Positions 7,804-29,991 of a DNA stretch of 64,000 bases are shown in pieces. The DNA is from Escherichia phage vB_EcoM_CRJP21. The stretch is taken from the sequence record OQ708376.1; one strand, 5' to 3'. Under the pieces are notes generated by a model. That model was given only the letters and a program-made list of their open reading frames with translations, did not search any database and was not told the DNA's origin. Position 1 is the stretch's first letter. The number at the start of each line of letters is the position of its first letter. Made by a program: the position numbers and the translations under genes.

Positions 7804-7904
7804 ACCGAAAATCGCACTTTTTAAAGCTTTTAAAAAAGGCGATTTTATTCAGTACTAAATAATATCATACTTTATACGAATGTAATATATCTATGGAGGA
7901 TATA

Positions 7905-8753
7905 ATGGCGAATTTAAAACTACTACAAGAAGCAATTGCGGCGTTTGCAAATGGCGAACAAGATATTGCTGATAAAAAAATGCGTAAGTATTTCGTTGAG
8001 CAAGCTCAAGAAATTAACAAACAACTAGAAGAAAGCATGGAAGATGAAGACGACGATGAAGATTGTGAAGTCGAAGTTAAAGTCAAAGATGAAGAAAAGC
8101 TTGACGAAGATTTTGATGTACAACCAGACGAAGGTCTAAATGCTGAAATCGAATACACCCTTGGTGAAGAAGATGAAAGTGCAGAAGAAGAAGTTGAATT
8201 CTCTGCTGATGCAGATGGTGACGGTGAAGACGATGTTGACGTTGAAGTGAAAGCTGATGCTGATGTTCCTTCCGAAGACCAATGGGAATCAATCCAAGAT
8301 GCTTTCCGTGGCCTACAACAAATGTTTGATGAAATCGGTGACGGTGAAGTTGATCTAGATTCTGAAGAAGAAGTAGAAGATAGCGAAGAAGAAGTTGGTG
8401 TTGACGGTGACGACGAATTTGCTGATGTTGAATTCGGCGATGAAAAATTCGGTGAATCCTTCAAACTAGAAAAAGTTGCTCCAGTTGATAAGAAAGAAAA
8501 AGCTGGCACTCATTCCAAATCTCCAGTAGCACCAGAAGCTAAATCTCCAGTAGCAGGAGCAGAGCCAGTTAAATTCGCTAAGAAAACTGACCAAGCCCCA
8601 CTACTAGACCTAGATGATAAATCTGTTCTACCAAAAGATAGCCTAGATCTTGGTAAAAATGCTCGCGGTGAAATGAAAGATGTTAAAGCACCAAAAACTA
8701 CTGCATCTAATTCTAAATCACCACTAAGCAAAGCACAACCTAAACTAAAATAA
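7905..8753 (+). CDS. Highly acidic protein, putative prohead core/scaffold component
   Basis: D/E-rich ORF in head module; RBS ggagg; upstream leader shares conserved element with capsid gene leader. Confidence 0.55.
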   Translation: MANLKLLQEAIAAFANGEQDIADKKMRKYFVEQAQEINKQLEESMEDEDDDEDCEVEVKVKDEEKLDEDFDVQPDEGLNAEIEYTLGEEDESAEEEVEFSADADGDGEDDVDVEVKADADVPSEDQWESIQDAFRGLQQMFDEIGDGEVDLDSEEEVEDSEEEVGVDGDDEFADVEFGDEKFGESFKLEKVAPVDKKEKAGTHSKSPVAPEAKSPVAGAEPVKFAKKTDQAPLLDLDDKSVLPKDSLDLGKNARGEMKDVKAPKTTASNSKSPLSKAQPKLK

Positions 8754-9463: not shown

Positions 9464-10579
9464 ATGTCTAAATTAGAAAAGCTTCTAAAAGAATCATCTC
9501 TTTCTGATGAGGCAAAACAGCTAATTCAGGAAGCATGGAATGAAGAAAAGAATACACTAGCCGCAGAGATGCGTGAAGAAATGAAAGGCCGTTATCAGCA
9601 AGATTTGGCTGAACTAACCGAAGGTTTGAACACGATGGTTACTCAAGTCATTGCTGAAGAAATGGGTGCTGTATATGAAGAGAAAAAACGTCTCGTTGAA
9701 GATCGTGTAACTCTACGTAAAACACTAAGCAATTTCTCTGCGTTTTCAAACTCTGTTTTGGCTGAAGAAGTTAAACAAATGCGTAAAGAACGTAAGCATC
9801 TTCATGAATGCATGGGTAAATTCGTTAATTTTTCTAACGGTATCCTAGCAGAAGAGCTAAAAGAATTCCACACTGAAAAACGCCAACTAGTAGAAACTCG
9901 CGTTAAACTACTTGCTGAAGGTTCACGTCAAATTGCTGAAGCTCGTAATAACTTCATCAAACGTACATCTGAAAGTGCTGCTAAATATATTGCAGAAACC
10001 ACTCAGAAGAATCTATATGCGTTGAAACAAGATCTAGTGGAAGCAAAACAAAATATGTTTGGTCGTAAAATCTTTGAAGCATTTGCTCAAGAGTTTAATG
10101 TCAAACAATTTAATGAAAACTCATTGCTACGTTCCCTAACTGAATCAATTAAATCTAAAGAAGATGAAATTGCTCAAGTTAAGCAAGAACTACATGAAAC
10201 TGCTAATGCCGTTAAAGCTGCTAAAACCAAACTACGTATTATGGAAGATGCACAAGCACGTAATGCGATTATGTCTGAACTAGTAAAACCACTAACTGCA
10301 CAGCAAAAACAAATTATGGAATCCCTTCTAGCTACTTCACCTACTGAAAAGCTTAAAGAAGATTTCAGCAAGTACCATAAGTCAGTACTTAACGGTACTA
10401 AAGTAAATGAATCTGCTACCACTCGTCAAGCAGTTCAGTCTTCCGCTAAGAAAACTCTTGCAGAAGGTAAAGTAATCACTGGCAACCGTCAGGCTATTGT
10501 TGAAAGCGAAGAAATGACCGCTGACGATATGGCATTCCTAAAAGAACTCGATGTTCTTTCAGGTATCAATAAAAAATAA
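9464..10579 (+). CDS. Prohead scaffold protein (gp22-like, coiled-coil)
   Basis: K/E/A/Q-rich helical protein immediately upstream of major capsid gene; late-promoter-like TATAAATA at 9409-9416. Confidence 0.55.
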   Translation: MSKLEKLLKESSLSDEAKQLIQEAWNEEKNTLAAEMREEMKGRYQQDLAELTEGLNTMVTQVIAEEMGAVYEEKKRLVEDRVTLRKTLSNFSAFSNSVLAEEVKQMRKERKHLHECMGKFVNFSNGILAEELKEFHTEKRQLVETRVKLLAEGSRQIAEARNNFIKRTSESAAKYIAETTQKNLYALKQDLVEAKQNMFGRKIFEAFAQEFNVKQFNENSLLRSLTESIKSKEDEIAQVKQELHETANAVKAAKTKLRIMEDAQARNAIMSELVKPLTAQQKQIMESLLATSPTEKLKEDFSKYHKSVLNGTKVNESATTRQAVQSSAKKTLAEGKVITGNRQAIVESEEMTADDMAFLKELDVLSGINKK

Positions 10580-10617: not shown

Positions 10618-10625
10618 TATAAATA
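10618..10625 (+). promoter_or_regulatory. T4-type late promoter core TATAAATA upstream of capsid gene
   Basis: Exact TATAAATA about 45 nt upstream of ATG 10671; embedded in leader element shared with 7847-7907. Confidence 0.5.
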
Positions 10626-10670
10626 ATATCATACTGAAAAACGAATATAACATCTTTAAGGAGATATATA

Positions 10671-11846
10671 ATGTCACAACTACTAAATGAATCCAAATGG
10701 GTAGCAGTAAAAGAGAAACTAGTTGAAGGTCTACAGGGTACTCGTAAGTCTGTAATGGAAACTGTTCTTGATAACCATCGTAAAGTTATGCTAACTGAAT
10801 CCGCAACTTCTGGTGCAACTACCGCTGGTAACATCGCTACTCTAAACAAAGTGATTCTACCAATTATGCGTCGTGTAATGCCAACCGTTATTGCTAACGA
10901 AATCATCGGTGTTCAACCAATGACTGGTCCAGTTGGTCAGATCCACACCCTACGTGTGCAATATGCTGATAACGCACCTGGTGTTATCGCTGGTGAAGAA
11001 ATGCTTTCTCCATACAAAATCGCTAAATCCTACTCTGGTGATCTAAATGCGGATAATAGCAACCCACAAGCTGCTCCTACTAGCCAACTAGAAGGTACTA
11101 TGGGTCGTCGCGTTAACATCCGTATTCTACGTGAAACTGTTGAAGCGAAATCTCGTCGTCTATCTGCACGTTGGACTGTTGAATCTGCACAAGATGCTCA
11201 ATCCCAACATGGTGTTGACGTTGAAGCAGAACTAATGGCTGCAATCGCTCAAGAAGTTACCGTAGAAATCGACCAAGAGCTACTAAGCCGTCTACGTGCA
11301 CTACCTGGTGCTGCTGCTGTAACTTATGACCAATCTAAAGTTACTGGTGTTGCAACCTTCGTTGGTGATGAGCACGCTGCTCTAGCAACTCTAATTAACC
11401 GTCAAGCAAACGAAGTTGCTCGTCGTACTAAGCGTGGTGCTGCAAACTGGGCTGTTGTTTCCCCAACTGCACTAACCATTCTACAATCTGCTACTACTTC
11501 TAGCTTTGCACGTACCACTGAAGGTACTTTCGAAGCACCAACTAACGTTAAGTTTGTAGGTACTCTAAACAGCACTATGCGTATTTTTGTTGATACTTAT
11601 GCAAGTGATGCAGAAGATATTCTAATTGGTTATAAAGGTAATGCAGAAACTGATGCTGGTGTGTTCTATTGCCCATACATCCCACTAATGGCTTCCGGTA
11701 CTGTAATGGACCCTAACACTGGGGAATTGGTCACAACTTTCTTAACCAGGTATGGTTATGTTCAGTTGACCGATAGCACCAGTTCACTAGGTAACGCTGC
11801 GGACTACTACAGCAAAATCGCTATCAAAAACGTTACTTTCATGTAA
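10671..11846 (+). CDS. Major capsid protein (T4 gp23-like)
   Basis: IANEIIGVQPMTGPVGQIHTLRVQY matches T4 gp23 IAFDICGVQPMNSPTGQVFALRAVY; ETVEAKSRRLSARWTVESAQD and GYKGNAETDAGVFYCPYIPL also match gp23. Confidence 0.9.
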   Translation: MSQLLNESKWVAVKEKLVEGLQGTRKSVMETVLDNHRKVMLTESATSGATTAGNIATLNKVILPIMRRVMPTVIANEIIGVQPMTGPVGQIHTLRVQYADNAPGVIAGEEMLSPYKIAKSYSGDLNADNSNPQAAPTSQLEGTMGRRVNIRILRETVEAKSRRLSARWTVESAQDAQSQHGVDVEAELMAAIAQEVTVEIDQELLSRLRALPGAAAVTYDQSKVTGVATFVGDEHAALATLINRQANEVARRTKRGAANWAVVSPTALTILQSATTSSFARTTEGTFEAPTNVKFVGTLNSTMRIFVDTYASDAEDILIGYKGNAETDAGVFYCPYIPLMASGTVMDPNTGELVTTFLTRYGYVQLTDSTSSLGNAADYYSKIAIKNVTFM

Positions 11847-11992: not shown

Positions 11993-13090
11993 ATGCCAAA
12001 CGTAAGTATCACCAAAGAAGAGTTTATCAGCAAAATGACTGCTAAGTATGGTGAATTTGATTTCAGTACTTTAGTATTCAAAGCAAGTAAGACAACAGTG
12101 AAATGTAACAAGTGTGGAAAAGAAAACACCAAACCTGCACTTCGTCACATTGCATGTACATGTGCATCATGTTATTCAAACATGTCACAACGTTCAAACA
12201 ACGACACATTCATCAGTACTGTAGAAACTAAATTTGGAAAAGATAAATTCAAATTTGATAAACTAAATTACACTAATGCTATATCAAAAGTAACAATTTT
12301 CTGCACAGATGAAGATCACAATGATTACTTTGAAATTACACCCAATAAATTTCTTTCTGGTAAAGGATGCCCCGTATGTAATAAAAATGAAGCATACAGT
12401 ACTGAAGAGTTCAAAGAAAAAGTAAAAGATAATTATGGTGATTTATTGGATTTAACTAACACGGTGTATGTAAATCAAAAAACTAAAGTAACTGTGTATT
12501 GTAACGCAGGTAATCATGAATGGACAGTTGATCCAAAAACTTTACTTGTTGGTAAGACTGGATGTGGTACATGCTCCGGTAAAGGCGGTCGAAGTACTGA
12601 ACGTTTCATTGAACTTGTGTCGCCTATCCATAACCATAAGTATGATTATAGCTTGGTGGATTACAAGACTAGTGATGAACATGTGGATATTATTTGTCCT
12701 GAACATGGTGTCTTTAAACAAATACCCAAATCTCATATGGCAGGAAGAGGATGTCCATCATGTGGTGAGTATGGTTATCAACCATCAAAGCCTGGATATT
12801 TCTATGTACAAAAACTATCTAATAACTCAAAAGTCGTTTACAAATACGGAATTACCGGAGACATGAAGAGACGAATTCATGAACAAAGTCGCAATTCTGA
12901 GTTCGAGCATGAAGTACTGGTAGAACGTTACTTTGAGGATGGTAATAAACCATTATTATTGGAAAAGTTTATCAAGCAATACATTGAAAGTGGTGTTGTA
13001 AGTACTGAAGAGTTACCGTCAGGATTTACTGAAACATTTGATGCTAAGTATCTTGAAAGTGTTTTAGAAATTGTAAATACTTTTAAGTAA
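11993..13090 (+). CDS. Multi-zinc-ribbon protein with C-terminal T5orf172/GIY-YIG-like domain
   Basis: Four repeats of the type GKGCPVCNK / GKTGCGTCSGK / GRGCPSCGE; C-terminus GYFYV...KYGITGDMKRRIHEQ...FTETFD resembles T5orf172 domain. Confidence 0.55.
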   Translation: MPNVSITKEEFISKMTAKYGEFDFSTLVFKASKTTVKCNKCGKENTKPALRHIACTCASCYSNMSQRSNNDTFISTVETKFGKDKFKFDKLNYTNAISKVTIFCTDEDHNDYFEITPNKFLSGKGCPVCNKNEAYSTEEFKEKVKDNYGDLLDLTNTVYVNQKTKVTVYCNAGNHEWTVDPKTLLVGKTGCGTCSGKGGRSTERFIELVSPIHNHKYDYSLVDYKTSDEHVDIICPEHGVFKQIPKSHMAGRGCPSCGEYGYQPSKPGYFYVQKLSNNSKVVYKYGITGDMKRRIHEQSRNSEFEHEVLVERYFEDGNKPLLLEKFIKQYIESGVVSTEELPSGFTETFDAKYLESVLEIVNTFK

Positions 13091-20018: not shown

Positions 20019-20750
20019 ATGGATCTACGCAACGTACTACGTGACCTCGTAAACACAACCAGTGGTATTGACTTCTCTTGTATTGCAGTAAGCAGTGAAG
20101 ACCGTGGTGAAGGACAACGTGTATATCTAGAAGCGTACACAGATGACCGAACTCTTGTAATGCGAGCATATACTAAAGAAGATGTTCCTGAAGTTCAGGG
20201 TCGTTTTGGCTTAGGTAATCTAGGTCTTCTTCAGGGTCTAATGTCTCTAAAAACATACAGTACCGAAGGAACCACAATCACATCAAATGTTAAAGATGGT
20301 TCAGTTAAAAGTCTGGCATTTAAATCTGAAGATGCAAGCACTACATTTATGGTACAAGCTGAAAAACTTATTCCAGTTCAACCACGTTTTCATGAACAAC
20401 CATATGACGTACAGGTTATTCCTAGTGCAGCAAAAGTTCAGGAACTAAAGAGTTTTTCTGGTGTATTTAAATCTTTTAGTTCTCTTGTAACTCCGTATAC
20501 TGAAGGCGACACCCTATACTTTCACGTTGGTGAGAAAAACAAAAGTAACCACGTTGGTTCTCTAGCTTTTTCTAAAACTGAAGGTGAATTAGGTCTTGGT
20601 TTTGGTTATAATATTGATCGCGTACTTCAAGCATTATCTCGCGTATCTAATGCCGAATCAGTATCACTTGGTATTACTAAAACTGGTATGCTAAATGTAA
20701 CACTAGATACTGGAATTGCAGTATACAAATTTTACGTAACAGGCTGCTAA
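20019..20750 (+). CDS. Sliding clamp (T4 gp45-like)
   Basis: 243 aa; N-terminus L..LVNTTSGIDF resembles T4 gp45 LLKNFATINSGIM; RBS aacggag. Confidence 0.6.
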   Translation: MDLRNVLRDLVNTTSGIDFSCIAVSSEDRGEGQRVYLEAYTDDRTLVMRAYTKEDVPEVQGRFGLGNLGLLQGLMSLKTYSTEGTTITSNVKDGSVKSLAFKSEDASTTFMVQAEKLIPVQPRFHEQPYDVQVIPSAAKVQELKSFSGVFKSFSSLVTPYTEGDTLYFHVGEKNKSNHVGSLAFSKTEGELGLGFGYNIDRVLQALSRVSNAESVSLGITKTGMLNVTLDTGIAVYKFYVTGC

Positions 20751-21022: not shown

Positions 21023-21322
21023 ATGAAAATTAAAATGATTAATGATTACGTTCTTGTTCGACAAATTGAAGCACAGAATAAAAGTACTGGTGGTATTATT
21101 CTAGGTAATGTTGAACCACCATGTATTGGGATGGTAATTTCCGTTGGTCCAGGTAAAATTCTTCCGAACGGACAACTAGCAGAACATAATATTAAAGAAG
21201 GTGATATGGTTGTGTTTGGTCGTTCATCTTTGAACACACCACTGACTGAAGATCTTGGTGGGGGCGAAGATACATATTATGTAATGAAAATCGAAGAGAT
21301 TTTTGGTAAGAAAAATGGCTAA
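21023..21322 (+). CDS. groES: Co-chaperonin GroES homolog (functional analog of T4 gp31)
   Basis: KSTGGIILGN...VISVGPGKILPNG...GDMVVFG aligns with E. coli GroES KSAGGIVLTG...VLAVGNGRILENG...GDIVIF; RBS GGAGG. Confidence 0.85.
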   Translation: MKIKMINDYVLVRQIEAQNKSTGGIILGNVEPPCIGMVISVGPGKILPNGQLAEHNIKEGDMVVFGRSSLNTPLTEDLGGGEDTYYVMKIEEIFGKKNG

Positions 21323-22040
21323 AAAGAAATTTATTCCATTTTGGATGGTCCCTGCTCACTGGGGACTTTCTGGAAAGGCAAAAGAGATAGCTAAAGCATA
21401 CTACTACAATGATGATTATGAAGCTGATATGAAAGTTGCTGAATTGACATATCTAACTCCATATGAAGTTGAAGTGGCCCAATTGGATATTAAAAAGAAA
21501 TATAGCGTAATTGGAGATTTGGAATATCTAATTGCTGTACTTGATGTTGAACTAAAATATTCTAAAATTACTCGTGAACAGTATGATGTTAAAGTTCTTG
21601 ATGCAAAACTAAGTATTGGAGTTATTACAGAAAAAGAATATGATATGGAAATCATTGAGTTAATGCCAGAAGGTGATGAAAAAAGGCTTAAGGCTATTGA
21701 ATTTGCATATCGTTACGATGAAATCACACAAAGTGAATATTCTAAGGAAATATACACACTTCGTAAAGAACCTTGGATTGATTTGGATGTTGTTCTTGAT
21801 CCTGAAACTAATGAAGTTGAGTTTGTATTTGACTATAATGAATATTTCTGGAAAAAGTTGAAAGCTGAAGGTCATCCAGGAAATGATGAAGAAGAAATTA
21901 TCGATAACTTTGTGAGAGACTTGGGGCGTAAACTTGCTACGGATGATTTCAGTGATGATTACGACACAAAGCTGGTGAGTGCGAACGAAGGATTAGACAA
22001 GCTACCTGGTTTGCCTGAAGGATTTCGTTCATATAGATAA
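21303..22040 (+). CDS. Hypothetical protein with short internal repeats
   Basis: Repeated ~13-aa units (ITREQYDVKVLDAKL / ITEKEYDMEIIEL / ITQSEYSKEIYTL). Confidence 0.5.
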   Translation: MVRKMAKKKFIPFWMVPAHWGLSGKAKEIAKAYYYNDDYEADMKVAELTYLTPYEVEVAQLDIKKKYSVIGDLEYLIAVLDVELKYSKITREQYDVKVLDAKLSIGVITEKEYDMEIIELMPEGDEKRLKAIEFAYRYDEITQSEYSKEIYTLRKEPWIDLDVVLDPETNEVEFVFDYNEYFWKKLKAEGHPGNDEEEIIDNFVRDLGRKLATDDFSDDYDTKLVSANEGLDKLPGLPEGFRSYR

Positions 22041-22045
22041 CATAT

Positions 22046-22082
22046 AAAAAAAAAGGAGAGCAAATGCTCTCCTTTTCTTTTG
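22046..22082. terminator. Bidirectional rho-independent terminator
   Basis: A9 - ggagagc-aaat-gctctcc - TTTTCTTTT between convergent genes. Confidence 0.75.
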
Positions 22083-22089
22083 AAAAATA

Positions 22090-22779
22090 TTAAACCAATG
22101 CTGGGATGTATTGGAAAAGTTTAACACCGAAATCACCTGCTGCATCAGCAGATTGGGAACGTAGGTAAACTTCGGTAACACCATCTTTAGCAAGTAGTGG
22201 AACACCAGTTAGATCATCAATTAGTAGACGGCCTTCTTCGGATTCAGTACTTGGTACACCTTGTGGTGATTTAAGATCTTTGTTAAAGACACCAGCACGT
22301 TCAACTAGGAAGGTTACAACGGAAGCATCAGCAATACTAACTGAACCTGCACTCAATACACCATCAGGTGCGTTGGTGAAACCAGTAACTGGAAATACTT
22401 CAAGACCATTACCTGCGATGTTAGAGGTAGCGATGATAACCGCACGTTGTTGAACAACATCGACAATACGTTTAACGTTAGTTTGTGCTGCATAAGATGC
22501 ATTGTAATCAGCTTCTAGTGTGCCAAGAACAAATGCAGTTCCATCAATACGTTTGATACCTTTATCATTTAGATATGCTAGAATTTCTTCTGGAATATCA
22601 GTGTTTAGAAAACGTTGTAGACCAGCATAAGAAGAAACTGCACCAGTAACTAGAACGTTTACGTTTCCTAGCTTACTGATAGCAATGGATGCTAGGGCGT
22701 TAGTGCCACAAAAGTAACCTAGAATACGTTCAAAGGAATAACCATTGATACGTTCAAAAGAAGTATTAGTATATGACAT
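22090..22779 (-). CDS. Hypothetical protein, paralog of adjacent gene (likely virion structural)
   Basis: Shares QQRAV(L/I)...T(F)(I/L)xERxxVFNK core with the 22794-23393 product; RBS aggagg. Confidence 0.55.
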   Translation of the reverse strand: MSYTNTSFERINGYSFERILGYFCGTNALASIAISKLGNVNVLVTGAVSSYAGLQRFLNTDIPEEILAYLNDKGIKRIDGTAFVLGTLEADYNASYAAQTNVKRIVDVVQQRAVIIATSNIAGNGLEVFPVTGFTNAPDGVLSAGSVSIADASVVTFLVERAGVFNKDLKSPQGVPSTESEEGRLLIDDLTGVPLLAKDGVTEVYLRSQSADAAGDFGVKLFQYIPALV

Positions 22780-22793
22780 AATCTATCCTCCTA

Positions 22794-23393
22794 TTATAGT
22801 TGAACAGGAAGAGCAGCACGTACTTTAATTGCTACAGCAGTAGATGCACCTGCATCACCAACACCATCAGTACCTTGACTTACGAAAGTTTTGGTACGGA
22901 AAACTTTAGCTTGAGCGATAGACTTAGCTAGGTCAACAGTTGGATCAACTGGAGCAGGACATGCTGAACCAGGACGAACTTCTTGCTTGTTAAATACGTC
23001 TTGACGTTCACAGATGAAAGTCAATGCAACAGAATTAGCACCACCTGCTACATCAGCACCACTAGTGCCGAACGCAACTACGTTTGGATTAGCATTTTTG
23101 AAATCAGCAGGAATAACAACTTCTGAATCAAGAGCTAGTAGAGAGGTAGTCACTAGAACTGCACGTTGTTGTAGTAGTTGGGTAACCATGAATAGGTTAT
23201 ATTGAGCATTACTTAGAGCAGTTTGATACGCTTCAGCTTGAACATCAGAACCGTCAGAAGTAACTTTGGTAGTACCTAGTTCAACATCAGTTGGTAGATC
23301 GATTACGATGGTAACGAAACCGTTATTACCACCCCACCATTCGCGAGCAACGCTAGACATACCATAGTTACGGTTAAAAGAATTAAGACTCAT
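22794..23393 (-). CDS. Hypothetical protein, paralog of adjacent gene (likely virion structural)
   Basis: Tandem paralog of the 22090-22779 product; RBS aaggag; upstream palindrome gcaggtatatcctgc. Confidence 0.55.
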   Translation of the reverse strand: MSLNSFNRNYGMSSVAREWWGGNNGFVTIVIDLPTDVELGTTKVTSDGSDVQAEAYQTALSNAQYNLFMVTQLLQQRAVLVTTSLLALDSEVVIPADFKNANPNVVAFGTSGADVAGGANSVALTFICERQDVFNKQEVRPGSACPAPVDPTVDLAKSIAQAKVFRTKTFVSQGTDGVGDAGASTAVAIKVRAALPVQL

Positions 23394-23534
23394 GAAAATC
23401 TCCTTGTCAAATTTTGTGCAGGTATATCCTGCTTAAAGTTATTTATCAAAAAATATCACTAGCATTTAAATTTACTGAGATATTTAATGAATTTCTATGA
23501 TATTATTTATCAAATCTGGGAAAGTGATTCAAGA

Positions 23535-23554: not shown

Positions 23555-28812
<5,258 letters not shown>

Positions 28813-28938: not shown

Positions 28939-29991
28939 ATGAAATCTCTAGCTGAAATTCGTGCACACCTAAAAGCAGAACAAGAAAAAGCAGAAGCTCA
29001 AAAGAATGGTACATTTACTGGCGAGCGTAAAGCTGATTCGTTCTTAGCTTTCTGGAACGTACCTTATAACGAACCACTAAACCTACGTTTTCTACCAGAT
29101 GCAGATGAGTCTAACCCATTCTTCTGGCGTGAACGTGACATGATTAACCTAACTTTCAATGGTGTAGTCGGTATGCACACTGATAAAGTTACCGTTCAAG
29201 TACCTTGTAACGAAATGTGGGTTCCTAAATCCTGTCCGGTTCTGAAAGAAGTACGTCAATGGTTCCAAAGTGCGAATGAAACAGGGAACGAAGAACTAAA
29301 AGCAATGGCTGGTCGTTACTGGAAGAAGAAAACCTATCTAATGCAATGTTTTATTGCTCCTGATAGCGTTGCAGTAAAAGACGACATTGCACCAGAAAAT
29401 CCAATTCGTCGTATTCTGGCTAACAAAGATATCTTTGATAAAGTTAAATCCATCCTGCTAAACCCAGGCATCAAAGAGTCTCCAACTCACTACGTTCAAG
29501 GTCGTGATTTTGGTATTGTTAAAACTAAGAATGGTGGTGGTTATAATAGCTACGACATGTCTCAATTCTCCATGTCTGAGCGTCCACTAAACGAAGAAGA
29601 ACTAGCAGCAATTGAAAAATATGGCCTATACAATCTAAATGATTTTATGCCAAAACAACCAACTCCAGAAGAGTTGAAAGCAATTGAAGAAATGTTCGAA
29701 GCATCAGTAAATGGTGAAGCATATGATCCAGCACGTTGGGCATTTGCATATCGTCCAGCAGGTGTACCAAAACCTAACTCTGGAACTGTTACTGAATCAA
29801 AACCAACTCCTGCTCCAGTACAACAAGAGTCAGAACCTGCACCAGTAGCACCTACTGCTCCAGTTACACCAGCCCCACAAGCTGCTCCAGTAACTCCAGT
29901 CGCTACCCCAGCAGCAACCACTCCTGAAGCACCAAAAGAACAACTATCTGCATCTGCACTAGTTGCTCGTTTGAAACAACAAGGTAAGTAA
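28939..29991 (+). CDS. Single-stranded DNA-binding protein (T4 gp32-like) with Pro/Ala/Thr-rich C-terminal tail
   Basis: LNLRFLPDADESNPFF resembles gp32 AVIRFLPSKNDEQAPF; His/Cys cluster HTDKVTVQVPCNEMWVPKSCP; located upstream of uvsX. Confidence 0.6.
   Translation: MKSLAEIRAHLKAEQEKAEAQKNGTFTGERKADSFLAFWNVPYNEPLNLRFLPDADESNPFFWRERDMINLTFNGVVGMHTDKVTVQVPCNEMWVPKSCPVLKEVRQWFQSANETGNEELKAMAGRYWKKKTYLMQCFIAPDSVAVKDDIAPENPIRRILANKDIFDKVKSILLNPGIKESPTHYVQGRDFGIVKTKNGGGYNSYDMSQFSMSERPLNEEELAAIEKYGLYNLNDFMPKQPTPEELKAIEEMFEASVNGEAYDPARWAFAYRPAGVPKPNSGTVTESKPTPAPVQQESEPAPVAPTAPVTPAPQAAPVTPVATPAATTPEAPKEQLSASALVARLKQQGK

Follow-up and report, generated by a model that had tools for sequence, protein, structure and literature searches.

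A conserved pair of paralogous virion proteins in RaK2-like jumbo phages: candidate accessory proteins of the capsid surface

A minus-strand operon, found in the 64,000 nt of Escherichia phage vB_EcoM_CRJP21 that we analysed (record OQ708376.1; hereafter the window), would make two ancient paralogous structural proteins of the RaK2-like jumbo myophages, of 199 and 229 amino acids, late and at a very high level. We tentatively read the two as hetero-oligomeric accessory proteins of the capsid surface, i.e., as decoration or cement proteins. The gene pair and its place among the abundant virion proteins are already present in the literature and databases, and the result is a refinement of the annotation of a known pair, not a new system. 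New here are a 15-nt motif shared with the gene of the major capsid protein (MCP), a capsid-like codon bias, and the preservation of the pair, of its order and of its synteny in very distant relatives. To these are added the firm rejection of the idea of a tail tube, a conserved hairpin in the leader and a specific, testable placement in the particle.

Organization of the operon

Both genes were taken from the open reading frame list. The first one (22794-23393, minus strand) encodes the 199-aa virion protein, with a computed mass of 20.9 kDa, a pI of 4.8 and a GRAVY of +0.1, and the second one (22090-22779, minus strand) encodes its 229-aa paralogue (24.3 kDa, pI 4.6 and GRAVY +0.2, likewise computed). 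They are separated by a spacer of 14 nt that contains the AGGAGG ribosome-binding site of the second gene (22787-22792, minus strand), which implies that the two are co-transcribed. The ribosome-binding site of the first gene, AAGGAG (23400-23405, minus strand), is kept in all 12 diverged leaders. At the other end of the operon, an intrinsic terminator (22046-22081, minus strand) is formed by a GC stem with an A-run before and a T-run after it; it is therefore bidirectional and can serve both convergent units, being common to the operon and to the plus-strand gene at 21315-22040. Between 3547 and 52366, the plus strand carries nearly all genes.

A first-pass annotation had described this locus as a two-gene minus-strand unit with strong ribosome-binding sites and a bidirectional terminator, inside an otherwise plus-strand region, and all these elements were found again at the positions given above. 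It had also reported a 5' palindrome, gcaggatatacctgc, as part of the unit; the palindrome is real, but its site at 23418-23432 belongs to the 5' leader and falls outside the interval 22090-23393.

Late-promoter-like motifs and leader hairpin

The divergent intergenic region located 5' of the operon measures 218 nt and harbors two copies of TGATAAATA on the operon strand. The proximal late-promoter-like motif, TGATAAATA at 23440-23448 (minus strand), corresponds to a (T)GATAAATAAC found at the same position in 10 of the 12 diverged leaders. The distal one is a late-promoter-like 15-mer, ATAAATAATATCATA, at 23496-23510 (minus strand), identical to the 15-mer upstream of the MCP gene: the 64 kb contain exactly two perfect copies, this one and that at 10619-10633 (plus strand), 38 nt before the MCP start. 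Copies with one mismatch occur at 7855-7869 and 27425-27439, upstream of virion structural protein genes that start at 7893 and 27461, respectively. In a shuffle control for the 15-mer, none of the 100 shuffles reached seven or more matches. The late promoter of T4 is TATAAATA, and the motif formed by TGATAAATA and ATAAATAATATCATA resembles it. Plain counts of TATAAATA and TGATAAATA in the window are not above chance, and only the longer 15-mer is informative.

With zero or one mismatch, the 15-mer stands just 5' of four virion-protein units, and this looks like a class of late promoters of the T4 type. The replication genes of the window, including those for FEN/RNase H, SSB and primase among others, have extended -10 elements (TGnTATAAT) upstream, and a scan of the pair locus for the sigma-70 consensus remained at background level. 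Because the operon has the 15-mer in common with the MCP gene, while the replication genes carry TGnTATAAT, it would belong to the late class and is probably co-regulated with the MCP gene. The literature searched contained no promoter report for this clade. Shorter ATAAATA motifs are seen upstream of many other structural genes of the window.

In the MFE fold, the palindrome of the leader (23418-23432, minus strand) forms a hairpin, GCAGG-ATATA-CCTGC, 7 nt downstream of the proximal motif. The leaders of 12 diverged loci follow the same order, made of (T)GATAAATAAC, about 5-7 nt, the hairpin, an A-rich spacer, AAGGAG and ATG. The stem is GCAGG/CCTGC at most loci, GTAAG/CTTAC in RaK2, CCAGG/CCTGG in a Vibrio phage and GGAC/GTCC in a metagenomic relative (L024). 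In the alignment, both partners have changed in three of the six pairs. Pairing is seen in 85.5% of the hairpin cells, compared to 25-36% after a shift of the partner by one to three columns, and this although the two most distant sequences are out of register. The hairpin was present in the MFE folds of all four sequences tested. The mRNA probably starts at the hairpin or close to it. A stem-loop near the transcription start is the classic arrangement of a 5' mRNA stabiliser and, by analogy, this hairpin probably stabilises the mRNA of the pair and helps to reach a high yield.

Two full-length paralogues of a small family

According to BLASTP, the 199-aa and 229-aa proteins share 35% identity over 89 aa (E 8e-9), and the aligned part includes QQRAV(L/I)(V/I)xTS and TF(I/L)xERxxVFNK, the two motifs of the common core on which the pair had initially been recognized. 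Orthologue alignments were then built separately for each protein and compared profile to profile with hhalign, which related the two families over essentially their whole length (184 columns, 98.7% probability, E 3e-16). The families differ substantially at one place only, where the 229-aa form has an additional helix-loop-helix of about 29 residues. Over both families, 12 residues never vary; they include, in the numbering of the 199-aa protein, R8 and G11 of the N-terminal arm as well as Q76-R77-x-V79, S84 and E129-R130. Both proteins also match over their full length PHROG 9326, a family of virion structural proteins of RaK2-like jumbo phages, with residues 1-199 of the shorter one (E 1.3e-86) and residues 3-229 of the longer one (E 4.5e-86) aligned on positions 1-195 of the profile. 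The two proteins are full-length paralogues and ancient duplicates.

An exhaustive profile search among 1.84 billion representative proteins retrieved 42 clusters only, and the family is therefore small and restricted to the clade. A match to a large protein of 1054 aa with Laminin_G/He_PIG repeats (P0143, E 7e-6) looks spurious and was discarded. In Pfam, the two proteins and 57 family members had chance-level matches only, including GLMA_C at E 0.097, and no support was obtained for the label 'hemagglutinin repeat' carried by the phAPEC6 record; a sequence-profile search of the PDB produced nothing below E 0.4. Some distant metagenomic homologues (P0130, P0131 and P0134; L029 4409-5281) are of a long form of 290-300 aa, which keeps the family core otherwise and adds near the C-terminus a segment of about 70 residues with repeated GG(S/T)GY...V..G and no Pfam match.

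Orthologues and synteny

The pair locus is 99.5-99.7% identical to that of the Asteriusvirus jumbo coliphages (PBECO4, 121Q, phAPEC6, UB and others), with 99.6% for PBECO4 and a DNA identity of 99.5% for phAPEC6, and the 199-aa protein is 100% identical in 121Q, PBECO4 and phAPEC6. The orthologues of the 199-aa and 229-aa proteins are, respectively, gp618 and gp617 of 121Q, gp504 and gp505 of PBECO4, gp210 and gp211 of phAPEC6, ORF107w and ORF106w of RaK2, and CBB_271 and CBB_270. RaK2, 121Q, phAPEC6, CBB and GAP32 (GAP32_264/265, PHROG 9326) thus have the same pair as here, alike in order, orientation and flanking genes, and the RaK2 proteins are 69% identical to those described here. The records of these five phages give 'virion structural protein' as function and go no further.

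Synteny was examined in Alcyoneusvirus, Mimasvirus, Eneladusvirus, a Vibrio jumbo phage and metagenomic contigs (profile match of about E 1e-16). Both paralogues are retained in every relative examined, the short one followed by the long one, on the strand opposite to their neighbours, and always flanked by the FEN/RNase H gene on one side and, on the other, by a gp506-like gene, after which comes GroES. Head or tail genes were sought in the neighbourhood of the pair in distant relatives, where the block made of FEN, the pair, the gp506-like gene and GroES was found everywhere; since this block is invariant, synteny does not help to decide where in the particle the proteins are located. The duplication is old and neither copy was lost, which suggests that the two paralogues are probably non-redundant. 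Given that both copies were retained through the whole history of the clade, we infer as the simplest reading that the 199-aa and 229-aa proteins act together as a hetero-oligomer.

At the equivalent position, the distant Vibrio phage 2.275.O (MG592671.1; L026 1135-3206) has three tandem genes encoding 227, 184 and 234 aa. A search of BFVD with the model of the 199-aa protein matched two proteins with adjacent UniProt accessions, of 184 aa (E 6e-16) and 227 aa (E 1e-4). These lengths are those of two of the three genes, which suggests that the lineage of Vibrio phage 2.275.O has a third paralogue.

Abundance in virions and codon bias

In RaK2, ORF106w and ORF107w were detected in virions as "two distantly related proteins"; they count among five proteins given by name with the SDS-PAGE figure, alongside MCP, sheath and gp528w, and migrate at their predicted size as distinct gel bands (PMC3622015). 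This migration indicates that they are not cleaved and argues, indirectly, against processing. A T4-type protease site (L/I-x-E) was also sought in the N-terminal arm, whose conserved motif F-(E/N/D)-R-x-x-G does not fit it. In the virions of phAPEC6, gp210 and gp211 reached 69.8% and 69.9% sequence coverage and ranked third and fourth of 62 proteins, to be compared with 74.9% for the MCP and 68.0% for the sheath (PMC7247149). CBB_270 showed the highest coverage (91.3%) of 55 virion proteins, CBB_271 being covered at 56.4% (PMC5259590). With orthologues highly covered in three independent virion proteomes (phAPEC6, CBB and RaK2), the suggestion of the first-pass annotation that these are abundant virion proteins is borne out.

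The genes of the pair are also biased toward the codons of the MCP gene. The share of CTA among leucine codons is 0.83 in the MCP gene (10671-11846), 0.73 and 0.68 in the pair, 0.78 in the gene at 7893-8753, 0.71 in the SSB gene (28939-29991) and 0.54 in the one at 9464-10579 (where the putative scaffold gp226c of phAPEC6 is located), compared to less than 0.35 in most other genes of the window. AGA is absent from this whole CTA-rich class, i.e., from the MCP gene, those at 7893-8753 and 9464-10579, SSB and the pair. The 64 kb contain no tRNA gene. When all 73 genes of the window were scored by the log-odds of MCP codon usage versus the rest, the pair ranked second and third, behind the MCP gene itself, which is self-scored. 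In RaK2, 28 non-MCP genes were scored in the same way: the orthologues of the pair came first and third, and the sheath gene (-0.17) and the three tube genes (-0.21 to -0.43) scored lower.

Provided that codon bias reflects expression, a bias higher than that of sheath and tube would mean that the output of the pair exceeds that of tail proteins present in about 150 copies and comes nearer to that of the MCP, present in 1620 copies. Taking mass spectrometry coverage and codon bias as the proxies that they are, the copy number of the pair would be on the scale of the capsid, with hundreds to more than 1000 copies per particle, and not on that of the tail. The late promoter motif shared with the capsid gene and the capsid-like codon bias both agree with the abundance of the pair.

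Predicted fold

AlphaFold2 models of both proteins were built on an alignment of 57 sequences, and are of reasonable confidence, with a pLDDT of 85.7 for the 199-aa and 79.7 for the 229-aa protein. Each begins with a low-confidence N-terminal arm of about 20 residues, after which come a strand, a helix of 26 residues and a mixed sheet accompanied by a second helix. The proteins are thus predicted to consist of an arm that is disordered but conserved in sequence (F-x-R-x-x-G) and of a compact alpha+beta two-layer sandwich. The first-pass annotation had taken their composition as beta-rich; the models are not simply so, being mixed alpha+beta with the 26-residue helix in each protein.

Fold comparison of the models revealed no close structural relative. 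All Foldseek matches in BFVD were to unnamed or uncharacterised proteins; the strongest were apparent family members, and the weak ones included a protein of Agrobacterium phage Atu_ph07. The HK97 fold, with its spine helix, A and P domains and E-loop, was not recognized in the pair, nor was the beta-sandwich fold of the tube type, and neither fold nor sequence is similar to the known decoration folds (the beta-tulip of gpD, Soc, the Ig-like Hoc/pb10 and the OB-fold of Dec). That the pair could not be assigned to a known head or tail family, as reported earlier, thus holds after Pfam scans, PDB profile search, structure prediction and Foldseek, all of which were without a characterised match.

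Location in the particle

Capsids of the RaK2/121Q type have T=28, contain about 350 kb of DNA and bear accessory densities that have no assigned gene. Maps of the phAPEC6 and 121Q capsids at 10 A display two such outer features. One is an elongated protein with a copy number close to that of the MCP, which builds a hexagonal network and has contacts with its neighbour that span the local two-fold axes; the other, which occupies each hexamer centre, is a protein shaped like a dimer and carrying fibres. Mass spectrometry gave the authors of the phAPEC6 study no assignment for the elongated density, and they did not exclude that it is a domain of the MCP. We consider it possible, and would stop short of calling it probable, that the pair forms hetero-oligomeric decoration or cement proteins on this surface, since the proteins are abundant, late, uncleaved and encoded outside the head-gene block, since their N-terminal arm is conserved, flexible and suited to docking, and since two related subunits would suit a pseudo-two-fold contact. 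The proteins would then sit outside the T=28 capsid, either as the elongated protein of the two-fold network or as the dimer-shaped fibre anchor at hexamer centres, and the conserved arm would dock onto the shell or onto the other member of the pair. The narrower proposal, that a pseudo-symmetric heterodimer of an undescribed alpha+beta fold makes this outer lattice or fibre anchor, is put forward with slightly more reserve.

The pair is similar in several respects to lambda gpD, T4 Soc and Hoc, T5 pb10 and Dec of phage L, which are also small, abundant, late, unprocessed and encoded away from the head block, as exemplified by soc and hoc of T4, located apart from the head genes; a further point of likeness is the flexible arm at the N-terminus, which could serve for docking on the shell. 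Unlike these proteins, with which it shares neither sequence nor fold, the pair consists of two obligatorily co-retained paralogues and not of one protein. Against the capsid surface stand the lack of any match to the fold of a known decoration protein and the fact that an inner body would require hundreds of copies too. Literature searches retrieved no high-resolution structure for the RaK2-like clade. Other phAPEC6 proteins compete for the same densities, namely gp347 (14 kDa, 75% coverage), gp306c (16.9 kDa, 66%) and gp253 (41 kDa, 66%) (PMC7247149).

The heads of 121Q and phAPEC6 contain a radiation-sensitive rod of 91 x 18 nm around which the DNA is spooled, and the pair might build this inner body or belong to it, which we regard as unlikely. 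The rod would need hundreds of copies of proteins of 20-25 kDa, in line with the abundance and codon bias of the pair, and in phiKZ, whose inner body is likewise made of abundant head-associated proteins, these proteins are described as paralogous families with tandem genes. However, internal proteins of T4 and phiKZ are usually processed by the prohead protease, and the pair shows no sign of processing, ORF106w and ORF107w of RaK2 running at their full predicted size. Moreover, the authors of the phAPEC6 study saw no sequence similarity between the phiKZ inner body and phAPEC6 proteins, the pair is mildly hydrophobic (positive GRAVY for both proteins), unlike the candidate core protein encoded at 7893-8753, and its genes lie outside the block of portal, protease, scaffold and MCP. 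An abundant accessory of the tail or neck, such as a sheath decoration or the anchor of the hair-like tail fibres, appears more doubtful still: tails of these phages do bear fibre rings and extra decoration densities, and the RaK2 pair is a visible gel band beside the sheath, but the tail decorations described are few, with 12 elongated proteins at each of two levels, whereas the codon bias of the pair exceeds that of the sheath (about 150 copies) and tube genes and its mass spectrometry coverage equals that of the MCP.

That one of the two is the tail tube protein was proposed in 2013 for RaK2 on the basis of a size of 21-25 kDa, of abundance and of predicted beta content (PMC3622015). The pair is indeed comparable to the T4 gp19/Hcp tube in size and abundance, but differs from it by its predicted fold, by the absence of a profile match and by genes that are not beside the sheath gene. 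Pfam and PHROG scans of the pair and 57 family members gave no tube family beyond chance level, and tube paralogues are encoded elsewhere: directly downstream of its sheath gene, RaK2 has three tube genes, ORF042-044, about 70 kb from ORF106w/107w, annotated as tail-tube in RefSeq and matching the tail-tube PHROGs 4542, 45 and 13438 in our profile check. Their phAPEC6 orthologues, gp273c, gp274c and gp275c, attributed by mass match only, were found in virions at 9-30% coverage (PMC7247149). The tube family was present in 92 phage records, 11 of them from Pseudomonas phages, and the 199-aa protein in 73, none from Pseudomonas phages, a difference that is only suggestive as the sensitivities of the searches differ. 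We thus reject the tail tube, whose remaining probability is minimal. Almost as improbable is that the pair corresponds to very abundant late non-structural proteins, e.g., assembly chaperones, that co-purify with virions. The location of the genes among replication and chaperone genes (GroES, FEN/RNase H) would fit this view, as would the occurrence of SSB, a RecA-like protein and thymidylate synthase in the same virion preparations, but such carried-over proteins reach 7-17% coverage versus about 70-91% for the pair, which moreover recurs in three preparations from three genera and gives distinct bands on the RaK2 gel.

If the placement on the capsid surface is true, the heterodimer would be a decoration or cement protein of the capsid that belongs to a new structural class, particular to the RaK2-like clade. 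Few other proteins reach an abundance that could explain the accessory densities. With the tail tube rejected, the operon apparently co-regulated with the MCP gene and a codon bias that matches that of this gene, the pair is a concrete and testable candidate for the reinforcement or decoration of a large capsid; it would also be a convenient handle for display or engineering on relatives of phages considered for therapy.

Other features of the window

The gene at 7893-8753 (plus strand), located between the portal and prohead protease genes, encodes a 286-aa virion structural protein (phrog_15696) that is very acidic and hydrophilic (89 D+E, pI 4.05, GRAVY -0.94), with an MCP-like codon bias and the one-mismatch late 15-mer upstream. 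Its product is a plausible component of the prohead core or inner body.

Directly after the MCP gene, a 365-aa ORF (11993-13090, plus strand) has no counterpart at this place in PBECO4, whose map is about 1.15 kb shorter. It matches phrog_681 (endonuclease, E 9e-77) and phrog_559 (HNH endonuclease) as well as treble-clef zinc-finger and T5orf172 domains, and possesses its own sigma-70-like promoter, ttgaca-N17-tataat. A mobile homing endonuclease is its probable product.

A 243-aa protein (20019-20750, plus strand), encoded between the genes for DNA polymerase and GroES, belongs to phrog_12062 and has no Pfam match. Although its gene has replication genes as neighbours, its phAPEC6 orthologue, gp215c, was detected in virions with 5 peptides and 26% coverage (PMC7247149). 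In the large terminase region, the annotation of which varies among relatives, a 234-aa ORF (25109-25813, plus strand) overlaps the start of the 546-aa terminase gene (25788-27428, plus strand); both ORFs are annotated as terminase in CBB, and RaK2 has one terminase gene of 2670 nt and an ORF of 681 nt.
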